Below are positions 5,610 through 43,035 of a stretch of DNA of 43,035 bases, piece after piece. The notes below the pieces were generated by a model. The model was given only the letters and a program-made list of their open reading frames with translations. It was not told where the DNA came from and made no database searches. The stretch lies in the IMG/VR virus record IMGVR_UViG_2690316195_000004, one strand, 5' to 3'. Position 1 is the first letter of the stretch. Each line of letters begins with the position of its first letter. The DNA is from a virus (taxonomy: Duplodnaviria; Heunggongvirae; Uroviricota; Caudoviricetes). A program made the position numbers and the translations under genes.

Positions 5610-6615
5610 TTTCTATCTCTTTTAAATATCTGCTCATTTCTTGAAATACCTCTTGTTCTACAAGCTTGCCTGAATCAGTAACCTCAATTGTTACATTTTT
5701 AATCTTAAGAAGATCTTTGCCTTTTATTTCTGAGCGACCATCACTTCGTTTGAATACAATGTTATCAAGATCACTAACAGGTTTTAATGTTGCACCTAAT
5801 AGTTTAGCATAACTATCTTCATCCATGCTCCTTGGTTTACTAAACTTTATCAACAGTTCAGCTGATACTATTTGATTGTCAATTATTTCTTTTAGATTTG
5901 GGAAATTTGGTACAGCTGATTTCAATGCATTTAAAACAGCGTGTGAAAGTTTTATTTTTGTATTTTTTTCTTCAATTTCTGATGGTGGCGATTTCATATC
6001 GGATGACTGAACCAATACTTCTTTTGGAAGAGGAGATGGATCTCTCACAGAAATTGATTTTATATCCTTAAGCTGAACTTTATTACCTTTAACAATCATC
6101 GGTGTGAATTCAATCATTTCATTCCCAACCAGCCAGCGTATATAAGTTTGTAGAGATGATATAGTCCTATTCATCTGCAGATTGGTAACTAAATAATTAT
6201 CACTTATACAGAAGTAGAAATGGTTTTTGCATACGACCTCTGTATCAATGTCAGCATTATGGAGATCACTAATTGTAAATGATTTTTTGTTAAAAAGTTG
6301 ATCGGGAATCTTTTCAACTCCCTCGCTTGGGGCAATTCTAACCATTGTACAAAAAACAGAATTACTGTTGTCTGATGTCTGATAGAACGATATCAAATCT
6401 TGTTCTTGCCTAAGATCGTCAGAGTTTAAAACCATGCAACGTTCTTTTACGGTAGATGAGTCAACTAGCTTTTGTAATAAAAGCTTTTTCGCGGGGCTAG
6501 ATTTTTCTGTTAGATTATTGTTTTCTATCTTAAAAGCTCTTAATTTCACTTGTTTAGGTTTATTATATTTTTTATTTACAGAGCTGCTATTTTCACTATT
6601 CATAGAATCAACCAT
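5590..6615 (-). CDS. Unknown soluble protein in the RexA position
   Basis: 341-aa Lys/Asp/Ser-rich ORF directly downstream of cI, overlapping the membrane-protein gene by 20 nt; AT-rich; no recognisable domain. Confidence 0.6.
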   Translation of the reverse strand: MVDSMNSENSSSVNKKYNKPKQVKLRAFKIENNNLTEKSSPAKKLLLQKLVDSSTVKERCMVLNSDDLRQEQDLISFYQTSDNSNSVFCTMVRIAPSEGVEKIPDQLFNKKSFTISDLHNADIDTEVVCKNHFYFCISDNYLVTNLQMNRTISSLQTYIRWLVGNEMIEFTPMIVKGNKVQLKDIKSISVRDPSPLPKEVLVQSSDMKSPPSEIEEKNTKIKLSHAVLNALKSAVPNFPNLKEIIDNQIVSAELLIKFSKPRSMDEDSYAKLLGATLKPVSDLDNIVFKRSDGRSEIKGKDLLKIKNVTIEVTDSGKLVEQEVFQEMSRYLKEIENEATNS

Positions 6616-6708
6616 TGATTATGTGTAGTTTTATAATGTAGTAAGCATCAAGTATTTTTATAATTTGAGTTTGGTTTATCACACAAACATTTAAACCAAC
6701 TTGCTAAG

Positions 6709-7401
6709 TCATCCATGTTTTCTGTATGTCTGCGGCATGCTCCCAATAACTTTCCCGAAGATAAACACCCGGTTCATCTCGTCTTTCTCGATCGGGTCCC
6801 ACGGTGAGTAGCTCTTGTTATCAGAGATAACCAGCAGCTTATCCTTCATCATTTGCAGGCGCTTTACATGGGCTGTGTCGTCATACAGAAACGCATAGAT
6901 ACCATCACCGTCGAAAGATTTAACCGTGATATCAACGAACAGAAGATCACCTGGTTCGATCGTTCCTGACATGCTGTCACCACGCACGTTAATGATGCGG
7001 ATATTTTCCGCCTTCCTGCCATCGAACATGTGACGAGCATCGTCAAACGAGTACTCAACCGAGCGTAGAACTTCTACAAACTCACGGTTGATTACACCCG
7101 GCCCGGCACTGACTTCTATATCAAGAACGTCAATCTTGAAGTATTTTGAATGGCTGACAGCAGGCTTCCCTGATTGTTGACCGTCATTTCTCATCGGGCC
7201 TATGCCTGATGAGAGCCATTCTGTTCGAACACCCAATGCATTAGCTATTTCAACAATTTTTGTTGAGCCGCGCGCGTTGCCGCTTGTCAGTCTCCAGATT
7301 GTGGGTTGAGCTACGCCAGACGCCTTTGCAAGAGCGCCTTGAGACATTCCAGATTGTTCCATCGCTAGGTTTAAGCGATCAGCAAGAGTTTCTTTTTTCA
7401 T
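6709..7401 (-). CDS. cI: CI-type prophage repressor (XRE HTH + S24/LexA-like peptidase)
   Basis: N-terminal HTH (MSQGALAKASGVAQPTIWRL) and C-terminal S24 autocleavage domain (GDSM...KRL); divergently oriented to cro; maximal ORF runs to 7437 (TTG); an ATG at 7401 has no SD, consistent with a leaderless pRM-type transcript. Confidence 0.85.
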   Translation of the reverse strand: MKKETLADRLNLAMEQSGMSQGALAKASGVAQPTIWRLTSGNARGSTKIVEIANALGVRTEWLSSGIGPMRNDGQQSGKPAVSHSKYFKIDVLDIEVSAGPGVINREFVEVLRSVEYSFDDARHMFDGRKAENIRIINVRGDSMSGTIEPGDLLFVDITVKSFDGDGIYAFLYDDTAHVKRLQMMKDKLLVISDNKSYSPWDPIEKDEMNRVFIFGKVIGSMPQTYRKHG

Positions 7402-7763: not shown

Positions 7764-8309
7764 ATGACTATGCAACCACTTACATACCAACAGACTAGCG
7801 GATTTAGCCCGACTGCGGTGATAAATCGTTCTCAAACAAAACAGGCGCCAGGCCACGAAAAAATCCGTGATGCCGTTCGCGCCTGGTCGGCTGCAGATAA
7901 TCAGGATGTTGTTGCCGCACTCATTGTGAATGAGTATCGGGAGCAGGGCGGCGGCACCATCGATTTCCCTGATGATGTCAGCCGTGCACGCCAGAAGCTG
8001 TTCCGCTTCCTCGATAACAAATTCGATTCTGAAAAATACCGAAATAACGTGCGTGAACTGACCCCGGCAATTCTGGCGGTACTACCGCTGGAATATCGCG
8101 GCCACCTGGTTGAGCAGGATAGCTACATGGCTCGGCTGGCTGAAATGGAAAAGGAACTCAGTGAGGCAAAACAGGCTGTCATTCTCAACGCACCACGCCA
8201 CCAGAAACTGAAGGAGATGAGTGAAGGCATTGTGTCGATGTTTCGTGTGGACCCGGATTTGGCTGGTCCACTGATGGCGATGGTCACCACCATGCTGGGG
8301 GCAATATGA
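7764..8309 (+). CDS. CII-position regulatory protein (possible YdaT-like)
   Basis: 181-aa ORF between cro and O, the slot occupied by cII in lambda; family assignment tentative. Confidence 0.45.
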   Translation: MTMQPLTYQQTSGFSPTAVINRSQTKQAPGHEKIRDAVRAWSAADNQDVVAALIVNEYREQGGGTIDFPDDVSRARQKLFRFLDNKFDSEKYRNNVRELTPAILAVLPLEYRGHLVEQDSYMARLAEMEKELSEAKQAVILNAPRHQKLKEMSEGIVSMFRVDPDLAGPLMAMVTTMLGAI

Positions 8310-8395
8310 CAGGTTCGGAAATGGCGAAAGCCGGTCTGCGCGAACAGAACCGACTTTCAGGTGCAAATCGTAACACACTCATTGCGGGAGGAATT

Positions 8396-9325
8396 ATGGC
8401 AAACACTGCTGAGATATTCAATTTTCCAGTGCCGGATGTGGCACAAAAGGAGCCGCGTGTGGCAGATCTCGATGATGGTTATACGCGCATTGCAAATGAG
8501 TTGCTGGAAGCTGTGATGCTGGCCGGATTAACACAGCACCAGCTTCTGGTCTTCCTGGCTGTCATGCGCAAAACATATGGCTTTAATAAAAAACTGGATT
8601 GGGTGAGCAACGAGCAACTTTCCGAGTTGACCGGGATATTGCCGCACAAGTGTTCTGCTGCAAAAAGTGTTCTGGTAAAGCGTGGGATTTTTATTCAGAG
8701 CGGGCGGAATATCGGCATTAATAATGTGGTCAGTGAATGGTCAACATTACCCGAATCAGGTAAGAAAAATAAAGTTTACCTGAAAGAGGTAAATTTACCT
8801 GAATCAGGTAAGAAAAGTTTACCCAAATCAGGTAAAGGCACTTACCCGAATCAGGTAAACACAAAAGACAAACTAACAAAAGACAATATAAAACCTTTTT
8901 CGTCCGAGAATTCTGGCGAATCCTCTGACCAACCAGAAAACGATCTTCCTGTGGAGAAACCAGATGCTGCAATTCAGAGCGGCAGCAGGTGGGGGACAGC
9001 AGAAGACCTGACCGCCGCAGAGTGGATGTTTGACATGGTGAAGACCATCGCGCCATCAGCCAGAAAACCGAATTTTGCAGGGTGGGCTAACGATATCCGC
9101 CTGATGCGTGAACGTGACGGACGTAACCACCGCGACATGTGCGTGCTGTTCCGCTGGGCATGCCAGGACAACTTCTGGTCCGGTAACGTGCTGAGTCCGG
9201 CCAAACTCCGCGACAAGTGGACCCAGCTCGAAATCAACCGAAACAAGCAACAGGCTGGCGTGACAGCCGGCAAACCAAAACTCGACCTGACGAACACTGA
9301 CTGGATTTACGGGGTGGATTTATGA
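8396..9325 (+). CDS. O: Replication initiator O
   Basis: N-terminal region similar to lambda O (VADLDDGY...RKTYGFNK), iterons embedded mid-gene, C-terminal FRWACQDNFWSGNVLSPAKLR matching the P-interacting domain; SD GGGAGG before ATG 8396. Confidence 0.85.
   Translation: MANTAEIFNFPVPDVAQKEPRVADLDDGYTRIANELLEAVMLAGLTQHQLLVFLAVMRKTYGFNKKLDWVSNEQLSELTGILPHKCSAAKSVLVKRGIFIQSGRNIGINNVVSEWSTLPESGKKNKVYLKEVNLPESGKKSLPKSGKGTYPNQVNTKDKLTKDNIKPFSSENSGESSDQPENDLPVEKPDAAIQSGSRWGTAEDLTAAEWMFDMVKTIAPSARKPNFAGWANDIRLMRERDGRNHRDMCVLFRWACQDNFWSGNVLSPAKLRDKWTQLEINRNKQQAGVTAGKPKLDLTNTDWIYGVDL
8748..8900. repeat. Replication origin: four iterons plus AT-rich region inside O
   Basis: Direct repeats TACC(C/T)(G/A)AATCAGGTAA at about 8748, 8795, 8818, 8842, then an A-rich tract. 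Confidence 0.85.
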
Positions 9326-10023
9326 AAAACATCGCCGCACAGATGGTTAACTTTGACCGTGAGCAGATGCGCCGGATCGCCAACAATATGCCGGAACAGT
9401 ACGACGAAAAGCCGCAGGTACAGCAGGTAGCGCAGATCATCAACGGTGTGTTCAGCCAGTTACTGGCAACTTTCCCTGCGAGCCTGGCTAACCGGGATCA
9501 GAACGAACTGAACGAAATCCGCCGCCAGTGGGTTCTGGCTTTCCGGGAAAACGGGATCACCACAATGGAACAGGTTAACGCAGGAATGCGCGTAGCCCGT
9601 CGGCAGAATCGACCATTCCTGCCATCACCCGGGCAGTTTGTTGCCTGGTGCCGGGAAGAAGCATCCGTTACCGCCGGGCTGCCAAACGCCAGCGAGCTGG
9701 TTGATATGGTTTACGAGTATTGCCGGAAGCGTGGCCTGTATCCGGACGCAGAGTCTTATCCATGGAAATCAAACGCGCACTACTGGCTGGTTACCAACCT
9801 GTACCAGAACATGCGGGCCAATGCGCTTACTGATGCGGAATTACGGCGCAAGGCTGCCGATGAACTGACCTATATGACAGCGCGAATTAACCGTGGTGAG
9901 ACGATACCTGAACCAGTAAAACAACTTCCTGTTATGGGCGGTAGACCTCTAAATCGTGCACAGGCTCTGGCGAAGATCGCAGAAATCAAAGCTAAGTTTG
10001 GGCTGAAAGGAGCAAGTGTATGA
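9322..10023 (+). CDS. P: Replication protein P (DnaB helicase loader)
   Basis: 233-aa ORF essentially matching lambda P as I recall it (MKNIAAQMVNFDREQMRRIANNMPEQYDEKPQVQQVAQIINGVF...). Confidence 0.95.
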   Translation: MKNIAAQMVNFDREQMRRIANNMPEQYDEKPQVQQVAQIINGVFSQLLATFPASLANRDQNELNEIRRQWVLAFRENGITTMEQVNAGMRVARRQNRPFLPSPGQFVAWCREEASVTAGLPNASELVDMVYEYCRKRGLYPDAESYPWKSNAHYWLVTNLYQNMRANALTDAELRRKAADELTYMTARINRGETIPEPVKQLPVMGGRPLNRAQALAKIAEIKAKFGLKGASV

Positions 10024-10226
10024 CGGGCAAAGAGGCAAGTATTCATTATGAGAAACTTTCTAAATTTTTTGAGCCAGATTAGTGGTCTTGGATTCAGTTT
10101 ACGTCTCAGATACTGAGAAAAATAACAATTTGTGATACATGTTAACATTATGACTTTTCAGGCTTTCACCAAATTTTTTTAAGAGTATTCTGACCCTTTC
10201 GTATCAATGCATGAACAGGAATCTAT

Positions 10227-11246
10227 ATGTGTTATAGCAATGTTACAGATCGTGATCTTATGGGGCAAATTGCTACTAAATTAAATGACTATCGAAACCC
10301 TCCTCAAGGTGGCATGAGCATTGATCATGTTAATCGATGGATTAATCAATTTGAGTTAACCGATAGGCGATTTGTCTTAGAGGAAACGGACCGATTAATG
10401 GGGATTGGATACTTCTCTGAGAGCGACTATCGCAGAGTTATTAGTAGTATCGCCAATGATGAGCAAAATGAAAGGTTCTTTCAAACCGCAGCGTTTCTCG
10501 ATATCCAGAACCAAGGCACCAGTCAATCTGAGTTTTTGGATTTGCTTCGCGAAGATTGTGTAGAAGAATTCAACGTTGTGACCAGACTGTCACAACGTCA
10601 AAGAGTTAGTTCATTCCGTGAATTTATTTACCTTGACGATGTTTCATTCTCAGGAGCTAAGGCAATCAATGATTTAACTTGGTTTATTGAGCACTTTGAA
10701 CTCCAAAATATTACAATATTGGTGTACTTTTTAGGCGGGCACACGTATTCAGCATGGAATATAAAAAAACAACTTGAACGAAAATTTGCTGATAGGAATA
10801 TTTCAGTTTGCGTTGATGGTGGTGAGTTTGCAGTTGTTGAAAATCAACGCCGAAACAGTTCGAGTTCTGAGGTTTTTTGGCCAAAAGCGCAAAGTGTATC
10901 AATACCTGAATGGGCTGACGGTCAAGTACATTATTTAGGAACATATCGTGACGGTTACGTCGCGAATAATTTTTTCCCTAATGAGCAGAGACGAGATCGT
11001 TTTGAAGCAATTATGACAAAAGTTGGGTTTGATATCCTTGGTCAGAGTCAAAATCCTTCTGATGCTATAAAGCCTTTAGGCTTTTCAACTTTCAATGGTG
11101 TTGGGTTTGGTGGAACTATCTTTACTTTCAGAAACTGCCCCAATAATACCCCTCTAGCGTACTGGTGGGGAACTTATCTTCGAACGGGAAATAGAGCTCT
11201 GGATTGTTGGTATCCACTTATGAAGCGTAATGTGTATAATCGGTGA
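10227..11246 (+). CDS. Unknown protein with phosphoribosyltransferase-like motif (candidate effector/toxin)
   Basis: 339-aa ORF in the ren/nin moron slot; FIYLDDVSFSGAK resembles the PRPP-binding motif of type I PRTases; stop overlaps the start of the NADAR gene; AT-rich. Confidence 0.55.
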   Translation: MCYSNVTDRDLMGQIATKLNDYRNPPQGGMSIDHVNRWINQFELTDRRFVLEETDRLMGIGYFSESDYRRVISSIANDEQNERFFQTAAFLDIQNQGTSQSEFLDLLREDCVEEFNVVTRLSQRQRVSSFREFIYLDDVSFSGAKAINDLTWFIEHFELQNITILVYFLGGHTYSAWNIKKQLERKFADRNISVCVDGGEFAVVENQRRNSSSSEVFWPKAQSVSIPEWADGQVHYLGTYRDGYVANNFFPNEQRRDRFEAIMTKVGFDILGQSQNPSDAIKPLGFSTFNGVGFGGTIFTFRNCPNNTPLAYWWGTYLRTGNRALDCWYPLMKRNVYNR

Positions 11247-11860
11247 TCATGAGCTATAGACTATACCTGTTTCACAACACAGTTTCTTTCAGGAAAACCA
11301 CCGAGAAATGGGGTGGTCTTTCCAACATGGCCAAAGGATATCCGCTCTTAGTTAATGGTATACCCATTCAATCGAGTGAAATTCTTTACCAAGCATGCCG
11401 ATATCCAGACTATCCAGATATCCAAAAGGCTATTATTACCCAAGGCAACCCTTATGAAGCTAAACAAACCGCCAGATCTTTCGAAGCCAAAACCCGTGCA
11501 GGTTGGGAAAAAAATCGAGTTTCGGTAATGAAATGGTGTGTCTGCGTTAAGCTTTGCCAGAACTGGGAATCGTTTTTCGCGCTCCTGGATAGCACAGGAG
11601 AGCATGACATTGTTGAGCACTCAGAGAAGGACCAATTTTGGGGGGCTAGTAAAGACTCCGAAGGTAACTTTTATGGTATGAACGTGTTAGGTCGTATCCT
11701 TATGGATGCGAGAGATGTTGCAAGAAAGAAGGGGCTTTCAGGGTTTGCTACGATACCGCCGCTACCCTTGGATAGGTTTCTTCTGCTCGGGGAGCAAATA
11801 CGTGATGTTACTTTCTCTCCACTACCGATGAATTCGGGGCAAAGCTTATCGCTTTTTTAA
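11243..11860 (+). CDS. NADAR-domain protein (YbiA-like N-glycosidase / ADP-ribosyl hydrolase)
   Basis: WGGLSNM...SSEILYQACRY...FWGASKDSEGNFYGMNVLGRILMDAR aligns with NADAR hallmark motifs; start GTG 11243 or ATG 11249, coupled to the upstream gene. Confidence 0.8.
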   Translation: MIMSYRLYLFHNTVSFRKTTEKWGGLSNMAKGYPLLVNGIPIQSSEILYQACRYPDYPDIQKAIITQGNPYEAKQTARSFEAKTRAGWEKNRVSVMKWCVCVKLCQNWESFFALLDSTGEHDIVEHSEKDQFWGASKDSEGNFYGMNVLGRILMDARDVARKKGLSGFATIPPLPLDRFLLLGEQIRDVTFSPLPMNSGQSLSLF

Positions 11861-11897
11861 TGTGGCGTTGTTCCTTTCACTGTCGTGACAGATCTGC

Positions 11898-11921
11898 AAA
11901 CCCGCTTTGGCGGGTTTTTTA
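11898..11921 (+). terminator. Rho-independent terminator after the NADAR gene
   Basis: Hairpin AAACCCGC-TTTG-GCGGGTTT followed by T-run. Confidence 0.7.
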
Positions 11922-12113
11922 TAAATTATGCAACTTATTGACTTGCTACCGATATGTCAGACTTTAACATAGCAGCTAAAATCTAGTACGAAGCCGACAA
12001 GGTAAACATTGACTTGGTGGCATCTAGTAAAGCGTACAATGAGTGCCTGAAGTTTTATTTCGAGAAGTCGATAACTTTACCTAAAGGTAGCGATCGGTAG
12101 CGATCCGGTTTAT

Positions 12114-12338
12114 TTGAAAACAGGAGGGTTGAAAGTGACGATAGAATTTGAATCTACCCCAGAAGGGGCAAGGCAGGGAATGACACATCATCAGCGAAAA
12201 ATTAGAGAACTTTTGGAAGAAGAAACTGCTATATGCGAGGACGCTCTTGAAGGTGAATACAATCAAGGTCGTCTGGATGAAATACATAAAGAGATAGCCT
12301 ATCGAGAAAGCCAAATCGAAAAATTGAAGGTTATTTGA
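12114..12338 (+). CDS. Small hypothetical acidic protein
   Basis: 74-aa ORF; SD AGGAGGG before an alternative GTG start at about 12135. Confidence 0.4.
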   Translation: MKTGGLKVTIEFESTPEGARQGMTHHQRKIRELLEEETAICEDALEGEYNQGRLDEIHKEIAYRESQIEKLKVI

Positions 12339-12535
12339 AGACATGAAAGCAATTTGATTTCCAGCTATCAACCCGCCATAATCATGTCATCGGAGCCTGA
12401 ACAACTCCGGTGACTTCTGCGCTAAACGGGGACGTTTATGCGCACATACAATCCAAACTCTCTTCTCCCTTCACAGATGCAGAAATGCACCTGCGATTTT
12501 TTGCATCCAGCGCCTGACCTCTGCGGAGGTGAAGC

Positions 12536-12991
12536 GTGAACCTACCACAAGATGGCATCAAACTGCATCGCGGTAACTTCACCGCTATCGGCCAGCAGAT
12601 CCAGCCTTATCTGGAGGACGGAAAATGCTTTCGCATGGTGCTTAAACCGTGGCGTGAGAAACGCAGTCTTTCCCAGAATGCACTCAGCCACATGTGGTAC
12701 AGCGAAATCAGTGAATACCTCATCAGCAGGGGGAAATCGTTCGCTACCGCAGCATGGGTAAAAGATGCTCTCAAACACACATACCTCGGTTATGAAACCA
12801 AGGACCTGGTTGATGTCGTAACCGGCGAAATCACTACTATCCAGTCGTTACGCCATACCTCCGATCTTGATACCGGAGAGATGTATGTCTTCCTGTGTAA
12901 GGTTGAAGCCTGGGCGATGAATATTGGCTGCCACCTGACTATTCCACAGAGCTGCGAGTTTCAGCTGCTGCGCGACAAGCAGGAGGCGTAA
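12536..12991 (+). CDS. ybcN: YbcN-like nin-region protein
   Basis: 151-aa ORF matching my recollection of DLP12 YbcN; GTG start with SD GGAGGTG. Confidence 0.7.
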
Positions 12992-37827: not shown

Positions 37828-37837
37828 TGGGGTGAAT

Positions 37838-40800
37838 ATGGCAGTAAAGATTTCAGGTGTACTGAAAGACGGCACAGGAAAACCGGTACAGAACTGCACA
37901 ATCCAGCTGAAAGCAAAACGTAACAGCACCACGGTGGTGGTGAACACGCTGGCCTCAGAAAATCCGGATGAAGCCGGGCGTTACAGCATGGACGTTGAGT
38001 ACGGGCAGTACAGCGTTATTCTGTTGGTGGAGGGATTCCCGCCGTCACATGCCGGGACCATCACCGTGTATGAAGATTCCCGACCCGGTACGCTGAATGA
38101 TTTTCTCGGTGCCATGACGGAGGATGATGCCCGTCCTGAGGCACTGCGCCGTTTTGAACTGATGGTGGAAGAGGTGGCGCGTAACGCGTCCGCGGTGGCA
38201 CAGAACACGGCAGCCGCGAAGAAGTCAGCCAGCGATGCCAGCACATCAGCCCGTGAGGCGGCAACCCATGCGACTGATGCTGCAGATTCAGCACGTGCAG
38301 CCAGCACGTCAGCCGGACAGGCCGCTTCGTCGGCTCAGTCAGCGTCTTCCAGCGCAGGAACGGCATCAACAAAGGCCACTGAAGCCTCAAAAAGTGCTGC
38401 CGCTGCAGAGTCCTCAAAAAGCGTGGCAGCTACCAGTGCCGGTGCGGCGAAAACGTCAGAAACGAATGCCGCAGCGTCAGAACAATCAGCCGCCACTTCT
38501 GCATCCACCGCGACCACGAAAGCGTCAGAAGCTGCCACCTCAGCCCGGGATGCGGCGGCCTCAAAAGAGGCAGCGAAATCATCAGAAACGAACGCATCCT
38601 TGAGCGCCAGTAGCGCAGCTTCCTCGGCAACGGCGGCAGGAAATTCCGCGAAGGCGGCAAAAACGTCCGAGACGAACGCCAGGTCTTCTGAGACGGCAGC
38701 GGGACAGAGCGCCTCAGCTGCGGCAGGCTCAAAAACAGCGGCTGCGTCGTCTGCCAGTGCCGCGTCAACAAGTGCCGGGCAGGCCTCAGCCAGTGCCACC
38801 GCCGCCGGAAAATCGGCAGAAAGCGCCGCATCATCCGCTTCAACAGCCACAACGAAGGCTGGCGAAGCCACTGAGCAGGCCACGGCAGCAGCGAGGTCAG
38901 CTTCCGCAGCGAAGACATCCGAAACGAACGCGAAAGCGTCGGAAACCCGTGCAGAATCCTCAAAAACGGCAGCGGCATCGTCCGCCAGTTCGGCGGCGTC
39001 ATCGGCATCATCGGCGTCTGCTTCAAAAGATGAGGCGACCAGACAGGCGTCAGCAGCGAAGGGCAGCGCCACGACGGCATCCACGAAGGCGACAGAGGCT
39101 GCTGGTAGTGCGAAGGCAGCAGCTCAGAGCAAAAGTACGGCGGAATCTGCAGCAACGCGCGCTGAGACAGCGGCAAAACGGGCAGAGGATATTGCATCCG
39201 CCGTGGCGCTTGAGGATGCGAGCACGACGAAAAAGGGGATAGTACAGCTCAGTAGTGCGACTAACAGCACTTCCGAGTCACTGGCGGCAACACCAAAAGC
39301 CGTTAAGGCCGCGTATGACCTGGCTAGCGGGAAATACACCGCACAGGATGCAACGACAGCACAGAAAGGGATAATCCAGCTAAGCAGCGCGACCAACAGC
39401 ACGTCTGAAACGCTGGCGGCAACGCCAAAGGCAGTAAAAGCAGCCAATGACAATGCTGAGAAACGTCTGCAGAAAGATCAGAACGGTGCGGATATCCCTG
39501 GCAAAGACACCTTTACGAAAAATATTGGTGCCTGCCGTGCCTTCGGTGGGTCAGTAAGCACAACAACAGGAAACTGGACGACTGCACAGTTTATCGAGTG
39601 GCTGGATTCTCAGGGAGCATTTAACCATCCATACTGGATGTGCAAGGGTTCCTGGTCTTATGGCAATAATAAAATCATTACTGATACTGGCTGCGGTAAT
39701 ATTCATCTCGCCGGAGCTGTCATTGAAGTAATGGGGATAAAGTCAGCGATGACGATCCGCATTACCACTCCGACCACATCCAGCGGTGGCGGAACAACCA
39801 ACGCCCAGTTTACCTATATTAATCACGGAACAGATTATTCACCTGGCTGGCGAAGGGACTATAACTCCAGAAATAAGCCAACGGCATCAGAGATCGGGGC
39901 GCTACCGTCAGGTGGAACAGCAGTATCATCAGTTAATCTGGCTTCAAAAGGTCGGGTAGCCGCGCTGACAGACAATACGCAGGGGGCAGCAGGTCTTGAG
40001 TTATACGAGGTGTATAACAACGGATATCCAACAACGTATGGAAATATCATTCACCTGAAAGGGATGACAGCCGTTGGCGAAGGTGAGTTACTCATCGGCT
40101 GGAGTGGTACAAGCGGTGCTCATGCTCCGGCATTTATTCGTTCACGACGGGATACGACCGACGCAAACTGGTCGCCGTGGGCGCAGCTTTACACCTCGGC
40201 TCATCCTCCTGCAGAGTTTTATCCAGTCGGTGCACCAATCCCGTGGCCATCAGATACCGTTCCGTCTGGTTATGTCCTGATGCAGGGGCAGACTTTTGAC
40301 AAATCTGCATACCCGAAACTTGCAGCCGCTTATCCGTCAGGCGTGATCCCTGATATGCGTGGCTGGACGATTAAGGGCAAACCTGCCAGTGGTCGGGCCG
40401 TATTGTCTCAGGAACAGGACGGCATTAAATCGCACACCCACAGCGCCAGCGCATCCAGTACGGATTTGGGGACGAAAACCACATCGTCGTTTGATTACGG
40501 CACTAAATCCACGAATAACATCGGGGCGCATACGCACAGTGTGAGCGGTACAGCCGCAAGTGCCGGAAACCATACTCATAGTGTCACAGGCGCATCAGCA
40601 GTCAGCCAGTGGTCACAAAATGGGTCAGTACATAAGGTAGTGTCTGCGGCCAGTGTGAATACAAGTGCTGCAGGAGCGCACACTCATAGTGTCAGCGGCA
40701 CAGCTGCATCTGCAGGTGCTCACGCACATACTGTCGGTATTGGTGCTCATACGCACTCGGTTGCGATTGGCTCACATGGACACACCATCACCGTTAACGC

Positions 40801-40864
40801 TGCTGGTAACGCGGAAAACACCGTCAAAAACATCGCATTTAACTATATTGTGAGGCTTGCATGA
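37838..40864 (+). CDS. stf: Side tail fibre Stf (long form, Ala/Ser-rich repeats, tail-collar domain and His-box tip)
   Basis: N-terminus [26 protein letters not shown]... as in lambda Stf; central A/S/T-rich repeats; C-terminal collar-like segment and repeated GAHTHSV His boxes. Confidence 0.9.
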
Positions 40865-41763
40865 TTACGCTCATTCTTTCTGCACCAGTAACCGAAATGG
40901 CTGAAGCATTTAAGCGGGTATTTGCAAATGCAGATAATGTGAATATTGTCGGAAAGCCATTTGAAACAATCAGAGAATTTGACTGCATGGTAAGTGCGGC
41001 AAATAGTTTCGGCCTGATGGATGGCGGTGTTGATGCCGCCATTACCACATTCTTCGGTTCTCAGCTACAGGCCCGCGTTCAGAATCATATTCTTCGTGAA
41101 TATCTCGGCGAGCAGCCTGTAGGTTCTGCATTTGTTATTGAAACGGGGCATAATTATCACCCCTGGCTGGTACATGCGCCAACAATGCGTGTTCCGTTGA
41201 CAATTGACGGAACAGACGCTGTATATAACGCAACTTGGGCAGCTCTACTTGCTATCTTTCAGCACAATAAAAACGCAACGACAGACAGGAAAATAAAGAC
41301 GGTGGTATTCCCTGCAATGGGAGCCGGATGTGGTCAGGTGCCGTTTGAAAGCGTTGCCCGGCAGATGAAGCAGGCATGGGATAACTTTAATAAAAAAACA
41401 GAATCAATTAACTGGGAATACGCACAATCCCGCCAGTCGGCAGTATTTGGCACATATGCATACTGTCCGGGTAATTCTGTTTGCCGTTATGCGGATACTA
41501 AATATATTGGATGCGGCGATTATCGGACGTATTGCTCACGTTCCGGGCAGGTCTGTATTAACCCTGAACATCAGGCTGATGATGTACTGATACAACATCA
41601 GGCTAATAACCGGTTTCGCCCTGGTTCGCATATACACCGGATTAATCCAGAAAATCCTGTAGGTAATGTCATCTCTGGCGCACATAGCCACGGAAGTAGC
41701 ATCGTTATTGGTGCTCACACCCATACGCTCAATAAACAATATTCTGTCTCTGATATTAAGTAG
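40861..41763 (+). CDS. Macro-domain protein fused to a tail-fibre-tip-like His-box C-terminus
   Basis: N-terminal about 180 aa carry macro-domain motifs ([19 protein letters not shown]; [14 protein letters not shown]); C-terminal about 110 aa are Cys-rich then [19 protein letters not shown], resembling the Stf tip; ATGA overlap with stf stop. Confidence 0.6.
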
Positions 41764-41771
41764 AGGTGAAC

Positions 41772-42347
41772 ATGGATTTCAGAATGAGTGAACAACCACG
41801 GACCATAACAATTTATAATCTGCTGGCCGGAACTAATGAATTTATTGGTGAAGGTGACGCATACATTCCGCCTCATACAGGTCTGCCAGCAAACAGTACC
41901 GATATTGCACCGCCAGATATTCCGGCTGGTTTCGTGGCTGTTTTCAACAGTGATGAGTCATCGTGGCATCTCGTTGAAGATCATCGGGGTAAAACGGTTT
42001 ATGACGTGGCTTCCGGCGACGCGTTATTTATTTCTGAACTCGGCTCATTACCGGAAAATGTCACCTGGTTATCCCCGGAAGGGGAGTTTCAGAAGTGGAA
42101 CGGCACAGCCTGGGTGAAGGATACGGAAGCAGAAAAACTGTTCCGGATCCGGGAGGCGGAAGAAACAAAAAACAGCCTGATGCAGGTAGCCAGTGAGCAT
42201 ATAGCGCCGCTTCAGGATGCTGTGGATCTGGAGATCGCAACGGAGAAAGAAACCTTGTTGCTGGAAGCCTGGAAAAAGTATCGGGTGTTGCTGAACCGTG
42301 TTGATACATCAACTGCACCGGATATTGAATGGCCAGCCCTACCGTAG
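41772..42347 (+). CDS. tfa: Tail fibre assembly chaperone Tfa
   Basis: [54 protein letters not shown]... matching lambda Tfa. Confidence 0.9.
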
Positions 42348-42444: not shown

Positions 42445-43035
42445 TTATATATCAGGTGTCTGATTTTTTGCTTTAGCTCTTAAAATGGTTTGCCGCGAGG
42501 TTTTGAATTCTTGGGCAATGTCACTTATATTTATACCTGACTTAATTTGCTCTAGTACCCTCTGTATTTGTTCATCATTTAACACAGGTGGGCGACCAAA
42601 TCGCTTTCCTGCGCCCCGTGCTCTTAATATCCCTGAATGAGTACGCTCAAGTAAAAGGTCTCGCTCAAATTCAGCGACTGCTGAAATTACTTGCATCATC
42701 ATTTTTCCAGGTGGACTGGTCAGGTCAACGCCCCCCAATGCTAAGCAATGCACTTTGATACCTGCTTTGGTCAGTTGTTCCACCGTTTTACTGATATCCA
42801 TTGGATTACAACCGAGGCGATCCAGTTTTGTGACAATCAATGCATCACCTCTTTTCAGTCGATCAAGCAACTGGTTAAAACCAGGACGCTCACTGGTTGC
42901 TGCTGAGCCGCTAATTTGTTCTTCAATTATTTGCTGAGATTTGATGTTAAAACCTGCACTTTCGATTTCCCGACGTTGATTTTTGGTTGTCTTTTCCAGA
43001 GTTGATACCCGACAGTAAGCATAAATTCGAGACAT
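42445..43035 (-). CDS. pin: Serine DNA invertase (Pin/Gin/Hin family)
   Basis: [17 protein letters not shown]... with catalytic Ser and C-terminal HTH; start codon is the last three bases of the window. Confidence 0.9.

Follow-up and report, generated by a model that had tools for sequence, protein, structure and literature searches.

The closest described relative of the locus examined here is DS-32 (WP_000097610.1 and WP_032260665.1), a two-gene system that was found to be anti-phage by experiment in the DefensePredictor study (DeWeirdt et al., bioRxiv 10.1101/2025.01.08.631726; Science 2026, PMC13092281). The homologous clone tested there, NADR/DS-32, gave -log EOP values of 3.7 for Bas26 and 1.6 for RB69, and according to its authors the first protein has no similarity to DarT. 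A homologous phosphoribosyltransferase (PRTase)-like domain is known from the effectors of type III-A retrons; the PRTase of Retron-Eco11 defends, depletes PRPP on activation and is non-toxic when expressed alone, and a PNNxP motif has been described for the retron PRTases (PMC12746101). NADAR hydrolases are found in DarTG1 (DarT1-NADAR) and YarT-YbiA, two-gene anti-phage operons with enzymatic-antidote logic, in which the NADAR accompanies an enzyme adding a ribosyl-type group to a base (PMC11543638, PMC11125620). ShosTA, finally, consists of an anti-phage toxin with PRTase activity (ShosT), which disturbs purine and nucleotide metabolism, and a DprA-like DNA-binding partner, ShosA (PMC11961720).

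We analyzed a 43,035-nt stretch of DNA (the window) from a Caudoviricetes virus record, in which a preliminary description had placed two genes at 10227-11860, between P and the nin genes; open reading frames A and B lie at these positions (Table 1). Both proteins passed the NCBIfam equivalog models for DS-32, A with 310.9 bits to NF053875 (DS32_1_antiphage; cut-off 250, E = 9.6e-93, profile positions 2-322 of 322) and B with 259.8 bits to NF053876 (DS32_2_antiphage; cut-off 240, E = 7.5e-78, positions 1-181 of 181), and the RefSeq entries identical to them are already labelled "anti-phage protein." The window pair resembles the assayed DS-32 pair in gene order, the NADAR gene following the PRTase-like gene, in tight coupling, and in the identical slot from P to ybcN/ninB of DLP12-type prophages; B is 85% identical to its assayed counterpart. 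Protein A differs more, with 52% identity overall, 70% in a C-terminal block and 40-48% elsewhere, which counts against the explanation favored below, and the phage range of the window allele may differ. The pair is very probably a DS-32 allele, an anti-phage system of two genes that occupies the P/ninB slot of an E. coli DLP12-type prophage as accessory cargo. The system is thus one already known and published as DS-32, and by analogy with the homologous clone the window allele would be expected to protect against phages.

Domain matches to Phage_rep_O, Phage_lambda_P and NinB flank the pair, and the insertion slot runs from P to ninB/ybcN of the lambdoid prophage. The AT-rich insert and the terminator of its own that had been noted preliminarily were both recovered: the pair has a G+C content of 0.415 and positions 10024-12435 one of 0.41, compared with 0.51 in O-P and 0.505 in the nin genes, and with the downstream hairpin the cassette shows both of these moron-type traits. 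The terminator was overlooked by a consensus scanner and was found as a hairpin by its folding energy. No sigma-70 consensus promoter was seen within 200 nt 5' of A; on the plus strand at 10024-10226, no site agreed with the consensus at 9/12 positions or more, although weak or non-canonical promoters may escape such a scan. A and B are adjacent on one strand with the PRTase first, in the order and tight coupling of DS-32. At their junction (GGTGATCATG), the overlap of stop and start described earlier holds for the GTG start of B (4 nt); with the ATG start chosen in RefSeq there is a 2-nt gap, and GGTGA forms a Shine-Dalgarno-like element. Coupling is tight whichever start codon applies.

Table 1. 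Features of the A-B locus, in window coordinates.
Feature	Position	Strand	Remarks
Intergenic leader, gene P to pair	10024-10226	+	AT-rich, G+C 0.35-0.38; no consensus sigma-70 promoter
Gene A	10227-11246	+	339 aa; PRTase-CE phosphoribosyltransferase-like, DS-32A type, putative effector
LDIQ..G.SQ motif, start of PRTase core	10497-10526	+	Residues 91-100; L91, Q94, G97, S99 and Q100 invariant in family alignment
PRPP-binding-loop motif FIYLDDVSFSGAK	10623-10661	+	Residues 133-145; beta-strand ending in two acidic residues, loop, helix
C-terminal block PLGFSTF.G.GFGG..FTFRNCPNNTPL..W	11073-11165	+	Residues 283-313; common to retron type III PRTase effectors (PNNxP motif)
Gene junction GTGATCATG	11243-11251	+	TGA of A at 11244-11246; B start ATG 11249 or GTG 11243
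Gene B	11249 (ATG) or 11243 (GTG) to 11860	+	203 or 205 aa; NADAR-family N-glycosidase, DS-32B type
NADAR active-site helix SEILYQACR	11378-11401	+	E44 (11378), R51 (11399; Lys in other NADARs)
NADAR motif IVEHSEKDQFWG	11609-11644	+	E123 (YbiA-type catalytic Glu), D128, W131
Intrinsic terminator, hairpin AAACCCGC-TTTG-GCGGGTTT, then T-run	11898-11923	+	8-bp stem; dG -14.9 kcal/mol; z = -2.81

Among E. coli genomes, the pair was present in 63 of 5,426 (about 1% of complete genomes), always in a prophage slot. A collection of phage genomes contained no match to the region by megablast, nor to A by tblastn, and the pair is thus known from prophages and chromosomes, with no sequenced virion in the collection searched.

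Protein A matched the Pfam family PRTase-CE (PF24390; E = 5.9e-39, 134.9 bits against a gathering score of 27) over residues 35-334. Searched against the sequences of the PDB, the profile of the A family returned chance matches only, and the fold was therefore assigned through an AF2 model, a structure prediction having been proposed in the preliminary description. The model has a type I PRTase core, with a five-stranded parallel sheet that superposes on solved PRTases, and its top structural matches were salvage PRTases. The segment earlier likened to a PRPP-binding loop fits this assignment; Y135 and D138 are invariant in the family alignment, conservation reaches 90% or more at D137, F141 and G143, and the model places a strand (132-140) and a helix (144-157) around the motif. 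In the C-terminal block, P283, L284, G285, G293, F294, G295, R302, N303, C304, P305, N306, N307, P309, L310 and W313 are invariant, and the Gx14PNNxP-type signature is present as an invariant CPNNTP (residues 304-309). Family match and model together place A as a type I-fold PRTase of the PRTase-CE clade, that of the retron type III effectors, for which PRPP catalysis is predicted.

With the type III-A retron effectors, A thus has in common the PRTase-like domain, the PRPP loop and the clade-specific PNNxP block, and PADLOC model PRTase_III-A matched it at 5e-10 (residues 34-334), this model and RT_VI being its only PADLOC matches. Unlike the retrons, the window pair has no reverse transcriptase or msr/msd RNA beside it and has a NADAR partner instead of an RT-msDNA complex; the neighbors are O, P and NinB, and Rfam searches of positions 9500-12700 revealed no retron-like or other RNA, the sole match being isrB (23 bits, E = 0.3) on the terminator. 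A winged-helix DNA-binding lobe is absent from the C terminus of A, which stops at residue 339, just past the PNN block. Pfam and PADLOC gave no DarT-type or ART match for A, and no ShosT or ShosA model was among the PADLOC matches at E up to 0.1 (assuming that PADLOC-DB 2.0 includes ShosTA). The predicted PRTase activity of A recalls ShosT; the partner in the window is a NADAR, whereas that of ShosT is ShosA.

Gene B had rightly been called a NADAR (PF08719; E = 5.6e-23, 82.4 bits against a gathering score of 35.1). The catalytic and ribose/phosphate-binding residues of NADARs, in P. nicotianae numbering, are E43, K50, W89, R93, E125, D130 and W133 (PMC11543638). An earlier proposal to check these residues in B was followed, and all have counterparts, namely E44, R51 (Arg for Lys), W86, R90, E123, D128 and W131, which are 91-100% conserved among 82 PRTase-linked NADARs (E44, R51, E123, W131 and also G132 in 100%, D128 in 91%). 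The active site of B is thus intact by sequence, and hydrolase activity is predicted. The nearest solved relative is E. coli YbiA (2B3W; 3e-12), in which LVEHTENDAYWG aligns with IVEHSEKDQFWG of B, and the last-strand residue is Glu as in YbiA, versus Asp in DarT1-linked NADARs or His in phage gp30.3. Assignment to the BC4488 type, which has Asp as its catalytic residue and a DNA-binding extension at the N terminus, was rejected on this Glu and on the weak match to NADAR entry 8BAU (E = 0.0096, against 3e-12 for YbiA). In comparison with DarTG1 and YarT-YbiA, the partner of the hydrolase has a predicted PRPP-dependent PRTase fold rather than being an NAD+-dependent ADP-ribosyltransferase, the NADAR combines the YbiA-type Glu with an invariant Arg replacing the phosphate-binding Lys, and the effector gene comes first.

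In all of 80 loci sampled at species level, drawn from many phyla and for the most part not from phages, a NADAR gene lies directly 3' of PRTase-CE; the projected spacing is at most 30 nt in 70 of them. Single-chain PRTase-CE::NADAR and PRTase-CE::HRDC proteins also occur, and IS insertions were seen in A only, never in B, representing just two or three independent events. The converse does not always hold; a 198-aa NADAR group (45% identity) in an ICE-like context occurs without PRTase-CE. In-frame fusions join the NADAR to the type I R-M specificity subunit (NADAR::HsdS, 45 loci) or to an Hma methylase (NADAR::HmaB, four loci) and stand in place of the ordinary S or M subunit; at these loci the cassette is nested within hsdM-...-hsdR or hmaA-...-hmaC operons. 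We found no earlier literature report of a NADAR fused in frame to a specificity subunit or methylase. The nesting resembles that of PrrC in EcoprrI and of other defense genes that reside in type I R-M or Hma operons; the embedded NADARs differ in being fused to the specificity subunit or methylase, and the window copy in standing alone in a prophage. GmrSD-type, BrxU-like proteins (PADLOC HEC-05), which are modification-dependent nucleases, adjoin the pair at 19 loci. Type I R-M and Hma operons are documented as general hosts of unrelated, embedded defense genes (Payne et al., bioRxiv 10.1101/2024.01.29.577857), so that R-M association was dropped as proof of a DNA substrate; part of it may be uninformative in this respect, and only the in-frame fusions carry weight.

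Other apparent associations were set aside. A BRCT::PRTase-CE protein (P0050), considered as a link to DNA damage, follows a fragmented NAD-dependent ligase gene and is probably a LigA remnant or an assembly artefact. The Macro gene adjoining the pair at four R-M loci, a candidate third ribosyl-processing partner, is a canonical DarG (E = 3.7e-130) belonging to a separate embedded DarTG. PADLOC candidate PDC-M42, which lacks a PRTase component, gave a weak match (E = 2e-4 to 4e-10) to the NADAR alone and is a different system. The macro-domain gene previously noted at 40861-41763 of the window does encode such a domain (PF01661, 5.9e-19), and its product is 24-26% identical to the DarG proteins of the R-M loci.

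Taken as a whole, the best explanation, to which we give a probability of about 0.5, is a DS-32 allele in which A is a PRPP-consuming effector and B an enzymatic-antitoxin-like NADAR. For the substrate, the direction of the antagonism and the trigger we infer, more tentatively and at somewhat less than even odds, a mechanism in which B hydrolyzes the N-phosphoribosyl adducts that A forms, probably on nucleic-acid bases. Protein A would take PRPP and attach its 5-phosphoribose to a nitrogen nucleophile, most plausibly an exocyclic base amine, whether in DNA or in a nucleotide, and this activity would drain PRPP and damage replication. As a YbiA-type N-glycosidase, B would hydrolyze ribosyl-N bonds of that kind and would therefore, like an enzymatic antitoxin, restrain the products of A as long as the cell is uninfected. 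On infection the balance would tip toward the PRTase, and phage replication would be aborted. Two points speak against this scheme: the Retron-Eco11 PRTase is harmless on its own, and the negative promoter scan 5' of A leaves expression from the repressed prophage conjectural.

The covalent PRTase::NADAR fusion is accommodated at least as well by a joint two-enzyme effector as by a toxin/antitoxin pair. In such an effector, which we consider unlikely overall, the PRTase would convert PRPP and a base to a ribotide, which the NADAR would split back into the base and ribose-5-phosphate, a futile cycle that on a phage cue burns PRPP or destroys the nucleotide pool, with both genes required for toxicity and defense and neither acting as antitoxin. 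Strong purifying selection on both catalytic centers and the strict co-occurrence (80/80 loci) are consistent with it; however, it would require an off-switch, because constitutive co-expression would be costly, and it leaves unexplained why IS elements strike A alone and why the NADAR, rather than the PRTase, is tethered to DNA-recognition subunits. This tethering would suit a writer and eraser of a DNA mark that confer direct immunity without cell killing, the PRTase phosphoribosylating bases of replicating or incoming DNA and the NADAR clearing host DNA, with the specificity subunit or methylase delivering the eraser in the fusions and self told from non-self much as in R-M. In E. coli, though, the stand-alone form lacks a domain for DNA targeting, R-M and Hma operons commonly carry GmrSD and DarTG as embedded passengers, and to our knowledge no PRTase modifies DNA, which makes this a doubtful reading, with rather poor odds, in spite of the HsdS and HmaB fusions that replace the ordinary subunit (45 and four loci), the PRTase-CE::HRDC protein and the neighboring GmrSD-type proteins. 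NADARs are, moreover, able to de-ribosylate guanine in nucleic acids and, as a 2026 paper reports, cytidine as well.

The preliminary description was broadly right in seeing a defense pair of a PRTase-like protein and a NADAR. It had also allowed that the NADAR is a counter-defense gene. As such it might serve the prophage, for example, against DarT1-type guanine ADP-ribosylation, beside an unrelated or merely co-transcribed PRTase-like neighbor. That orphan NADARs of T4-like phages are reported to neutralize DarTG1, that all NADAR subfamilies assayed hydrolyze ADPr-guanine in vitro, and that the gene sits in a prophage would all agree with such a role. It is nevertheless very improbable given the strict pairing with PRTase-CE across phyla, the single-chain fusion, the YbiA-type Glu in place of the phage-type His, and the lack of a copy in the sequenced-phage collection; the homologous DS-32 pair, furthermore, protects against phage, and so defends rather than counters defense. 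Hardly credible is a pair engaged in ordinary nucleotide salvage or damage control, or one that is decaying cargo with no role in conflict. YbiA is a metabolite damage-control enzyme and salvage PRTases head the structural matches of A, which would fit such metabolism, but the pair passes defense-specific equivalog models, is mobile and patchily distributed in E. coli prophages, is embedded elsewhere in R-M and Hma systems, and has a homologue with an experimental defense phenotype.

As a DS-32 allele, the pair would represent host defense donated by a prophage, the P/ninB slot of DLP12-type prophages holding exchangeable alleles of the system. We know of no PRTase-plus-NADAR chemistry described in immunity. 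Testable hypotheses on substrate and regulation follow from the strict pairing, the HsdS and HmaB fusions, the single-chain proteins that join the PRTase to NADAR or HRDC, and the Arg that distinguishes the phosphate site of these NADARs. A bolder reading, to which we give a low probability, is that PRTase-CE proteins are the first PRPP-dependent nucleic-acid base phosphoribosyltransferases, which would add a 5-phosphoribosyl group to the bases of DNA or RNA, a "headless" counterpart of ADP-ribosylation by DarT, and that the dedicated NADAR with its invariant Arg for Lys would erase this adduct. About half of the species sampled have the eraser as part of the subunit by which a type I R-M or Hma complex recognizes DNA; on this reading, such an arrangement would tie classical restriction either to a second layer of immunity, based on ribosyl groups, or to a guard against anti-restriction proteins. 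If the substrate is a nucleic-acid base, the pair would carry out reversible DNA modification of a new type.

Pfam searches bore out the preliminary description, which had called the first gene phosphoribosyltransferase (PRTase)-like and the second a NADAR domain: protein A matched PRTase-CE (PF24390, 5.9e-39) and protein B matched NADAR (PF08719, 5.6e-23). Both scored above the curated equivalog cut-offs of NCBIfam models, with 310.9 bits for A against DS32_1_antiphage (cut-off 250) and 259.8 bits for B against "DS32_2_antiphage, NADAR family anti-phage protein" (cut-off 240). In PHROGs the two are present only as families of unknown function; in PADLOC, A had a remote full-length match to retron type III-A PRTase effectors (5e-10). 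The pair is real, but the system is already known: DS-32 has been named, validated as anti-phage and annotated in RefSeq, and the conflict-system logic proposed earlier was judged good.

The source of DS-32 is the DefensePredictor study (bioRxiv 10.1101/2025.01.08.631726; Science 2026, PMC13092281). As presented in the preprint, the system pairs a PRTase with a NADAR protein and "likely functions via a distinct mechanism", which may involve toxin-antitoxin partner swapping; the NADAR is structurally like the "DarG" antitoxin of DarTG, whereas the PRTase lacks similarity to DarT. According to entries in DefensePredictor Table S7, plating fell by 10^3.7 for Bas26 and by 10^1.6 for RB69 on cells with the cloned pair (WP_000097610.1, 343 aa, and WP_032260665.1, 203 aa), while SECphi18, T5 and Bas67 were affected weakly or formed smaller plaques. 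No mechanistic follow-up on DS-32 was found in the searchable literature. Window A shares 52% identity with DS-32A over 338 ungapped residues, and B shares 85% with DS-32B over all 203. The divergence of A is mosaic (residues 1-250 versus 251-338): identity was 40-48% in the N-terminal helical domain, core and insert, and 70% in the PNN block, the C-terminal signature region. The variable N-terminal part may be a surface under arms-race selection.

ORFs, junction, flanks, GC content and hairpin were all located (see the table), so every element of the original observation is present. The pair is an AT-rich insert between P and the nin genes, as described, with a GC content of 0.415 versus 0.51 in both flanks. 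The reported stop/start overlap depends on the start codon of B. At the junction (GGTGATCATG), A stops with TGA at 11244-11246; a GTG start at 11243 gives a 4-nt overlap, whereas the ATG at 11249, the start used in RefSeq, leaves a 2-nt gap and is accompanied by GGTGA, a Shine-Dalgarno-like element. Similarly, the reported terminator exists, but need not be the cassette's own: judged by the lambda map, a terminator in this place could equally be the tR2-type terminator of the early-right operon. No consensus promoter was found upstream of A. A small ORF (phrog_19187, unknown function; 67 aa in RefSeq, WP_000151203.1) lies in the same AT-rich stretch, 3' of the terminator and with a promoter-like site at 11954-11982; because it is missing from the sister-allele locus L082, it is separate cargo.

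Features of the window and of related loci
Feature	Position	Strand	Remarks
Phage_rep_O	8306-9325		5' flank of pair
Phage_lambda_P	9322-10023		5' flank of pair
A, PRTase-CE	10227-11246	+	339 aa
B, NADAR	11243 (GTG) or 11249 (ATG) to 11860	+	strand of A
8-bp hairpin, then T-run	11898-11923		dG -14.9 kcal/mol, z = -2.8
Small ORF	12114-12338	+	74 aa as listed
NinB/YbcN-type gene	12536-12991		3' flank of pair
Tail-fibre gene	37832-40864		5' neighbour of macro gene
Macro-domain protein	40861-41763	+	300 aa
Tail-fibre assembly gene	41766-42347		3' neighbour of macro gene
DNA invertase	42445-43035	-	
NADAR::HsdS examples	L008:7016-9109; L025:6914-9175; L038:7014-9206		related loci
NADAR::HmaB	L017:6875-11071; L021:6897-10556; L046; L066		related loci
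DarG	L010:11637-13001; L011:10850-12163; L031:9725-10909; L033:9872-10921		related loci
PRTase-CE fusions	P0215 (540 aa); P0208 (455 aa); P0307; P0201; P0302		library sequences alone

The C-terminal third of the macro-domain protein has His-x-His motifs (GAHSHG, GAHTHT) like those we associate with tail-fibre tips, which makes a virion- or fibre-associated protein possible. It had no match in PADLOC, and its identity to the DarG-type Macro genes of related restriction-modification (R-M) loci was only 24-26%.

The nearest solved structure to B was E. coli YbiA (2B3W, 3e-12), and the NADAR entry 8BAU matched weakly. Judged by published residue roles (Schuller et al. 2023) and by the subfamily rule for the last strand, where Glu marks YbiA-type, Asp DarT1-linked and His phage gp30.3 proteins (Toxins 2024), B is a YbiA-type enzyme. 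Its catalytic residues are present: across 82 PRTase-linked NADARs, E44, K72, W86, E123 and W131 were 100% conserved, R90 98% and D128 91%, and an invariant Arg (R51) replaces the phosphate-binding Lys of other NADARs. With active-site residues intact and conserved, A and B both look catalytically competent.

Of 5,426 complete E. coli genomes, 63 carry the region, each as a single chromosomal copy. Forty-one copies matched the window at ≥99% identity and three at 94.6%; the other 19, at ~78% nucleotide identity and detectable only across the 3' end of A plus B, are taken as candidates for the tested DS-32 type. NZ_CM149577.1 has identical genes, which already carry an anti-phage protein annotation; they belong to a DLP12-type prophage, located at tRNA-Arg beside fimZ, together with intD, bet/exo/gam, O, P, ybcN, ninE, ybcO, rusA, quuD, essD and rrrD. 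The diverged allele likewise occupies the P/ybcN slot, which thus carries exchangeable DS-32 alleles. Between P and the pair, the sister-allele prophage has a pseudogene of the MT-A70 methyltransferase family (L082:6099-6683), which further supports the P/ninB slot as a hotspot for cargo. The PRTase gene is broken beside an intact NADAR gene by ISKpn26 in ETEC1732/1734 (NZ_CP122823.1 / NZ_CP122801.1) and by ISVsa5 in 23CRST001 (NZ_AP045758.1, L082:7077-9264), and in NZ_OW968011.1 A is reduced to its first 458 nt with NADAR intact; a lost NADAR next to an intact PRTase was not seen among the 63 genomes. This pattern, from small numbers and only 2-3 independent events, is consistent with the PRTase as the costly or toxic member of the pair.

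A pattern scan for relatives of A, with one genome per species, yielded 166 hits. The best 80 loci came from Proteobacteria, Chloroflexi, Acidobacteria, Planctomycetota, Rhodothermales, Spirochaetia, Myxococcota and other groups, and in all 80 a B homologue lay immediately 3' on the same strand, with a projected spacing of ≤30 nt in 70. A diverged faster than B throughout (80/80; median identity to the window ~30% for A and ~46% for the NADAR domain). Searches begun from diverged NADARs also found PRTase-CE directly upstream, in a phage-like element of Vibrio and an integrase-bounded island of Enterobacter. An exhaustive profile search gave 1,237 family representatives at 50% identity, 590 of them below 1e-30. 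By these sequence comparisons, PRTase-CE and NADAR are an ancient, obligate couple. The NADAR subfamily is not exclusively PRTase-linked, since a distant 198-aa group (45% identical to B; L089:5001-5597) had no PRTase-CE in its ICE-like region, where Prok-E2, JAB and ThiF genes were observed. Two PRTase-CE paralogues accompany one NADAR in Enterobacter mori (L003:3901-4932 and 5938-6963) and in L073 (PRT-NADAR-PRT).

Stand-alone NADARs, window B among them, made up 30-32 of the 80 loci, depending on length cut-off. In 45 species-level loci, a type I R-M specificity subunit (Pfam Methylase_S; PADLOC Specificity_I, 1e-53) makes up all of a ~700-aa protein except its N-terminal domain, which is NADAR; the operon has the order hsdM - (GmrSD/BrxU-like HEC-05) - PRTase-CE - NADAR::HsdS - hsdR; no further ORF matching hsdS was seen in these operons. 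In four more, the fusion partner of NADAR is the DUF1156 adenine methylase HmaB, with HmaA and HmaC on either side. The three classes were interleaved in a rough neighbour-joining tree of A, implying repeated capture or release of the cassette. Library representatives included a single-chain PRTase-CE::NADAR, a PRTase-CE::HRDC with HRDC as C-terminal nucleic-acid-binding domain, and PRTase-CE behind LRR, Sel1 or FGE-sulfatase modules.

According to Payne et al. (bioRxiv 10.1101/2024.01.29.577857), type I R-M and Hma operons often harbour unrelated defence genes; a figure legend of that paper lists a NADAR-containing candidate, but the paper makes no mention of a PRTase. Canonical DarG (PADLOC 3.7e-130) was itself co-embedded between NADAR::HsdS and hsdR in four loci, probably with a DarT gene just upstream, placing two ribosyl-type systems side by side. 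Given such nesting, embedding alone proves little; the informative part is the in-frame NADAR::HsdS and NADAR::HmaB fusions, of which no description was found in the searchable literature.

The data show that both active sites are intact, that the genes are obligately paired and tightly coupled, and that a homologous pair defends; the remaining steps of a mechanism are inferred from known chemistry. In type I PRTases, a nitrogen nucleophile displaces pyrophosphate from PRPP to give an N-(5-phosphoribosyl) adduct. The bond between a ribosyl group and an exocyclic amine is what NADARs hydrolyse: YbiA does so in 5-phosphoribosylamino-pyrimidines, and N2-ADP-ribosyl-guanine is a substrate of DarT1-linked or YbiA-type NADARs. 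The products of A would thus belong to the class of compounds that B takes as substrates. We tentatively prefer an effector-antidote pair (probability about 0.4), in which A would consume PRPP and phosphoribosylate a base, and B would remove the adducts until infection tipped the balance; the HsdS, HmaB and HRDC fusions make nucleic acid the probable location of that base.

The single-chain PRTase-CE::NADAR fusion favours a joint, PRPP-burning futile cycle of A and B, which we nevertheless consider unlikely. A DNA writer and eraser conferring direct immunity is somewhat less probable again, while NADAR as a counter-defence gene seems very improbable and plain metabolism the most far-fetched. 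The NADAR-PRTase pairing has a possible chromosomal parallel, set in the context of DNA damage, in the E. coli K-12 operon ybiA-ybiB-dinG: this operon, which is under LexA control, encodes housekeeping YbiA together with YbiB, which binds DNA and is predicted to have phosphoribosyltransferase activity (PMC11125620). For the mechanism of DS-32, the fusions provide a specific lead.
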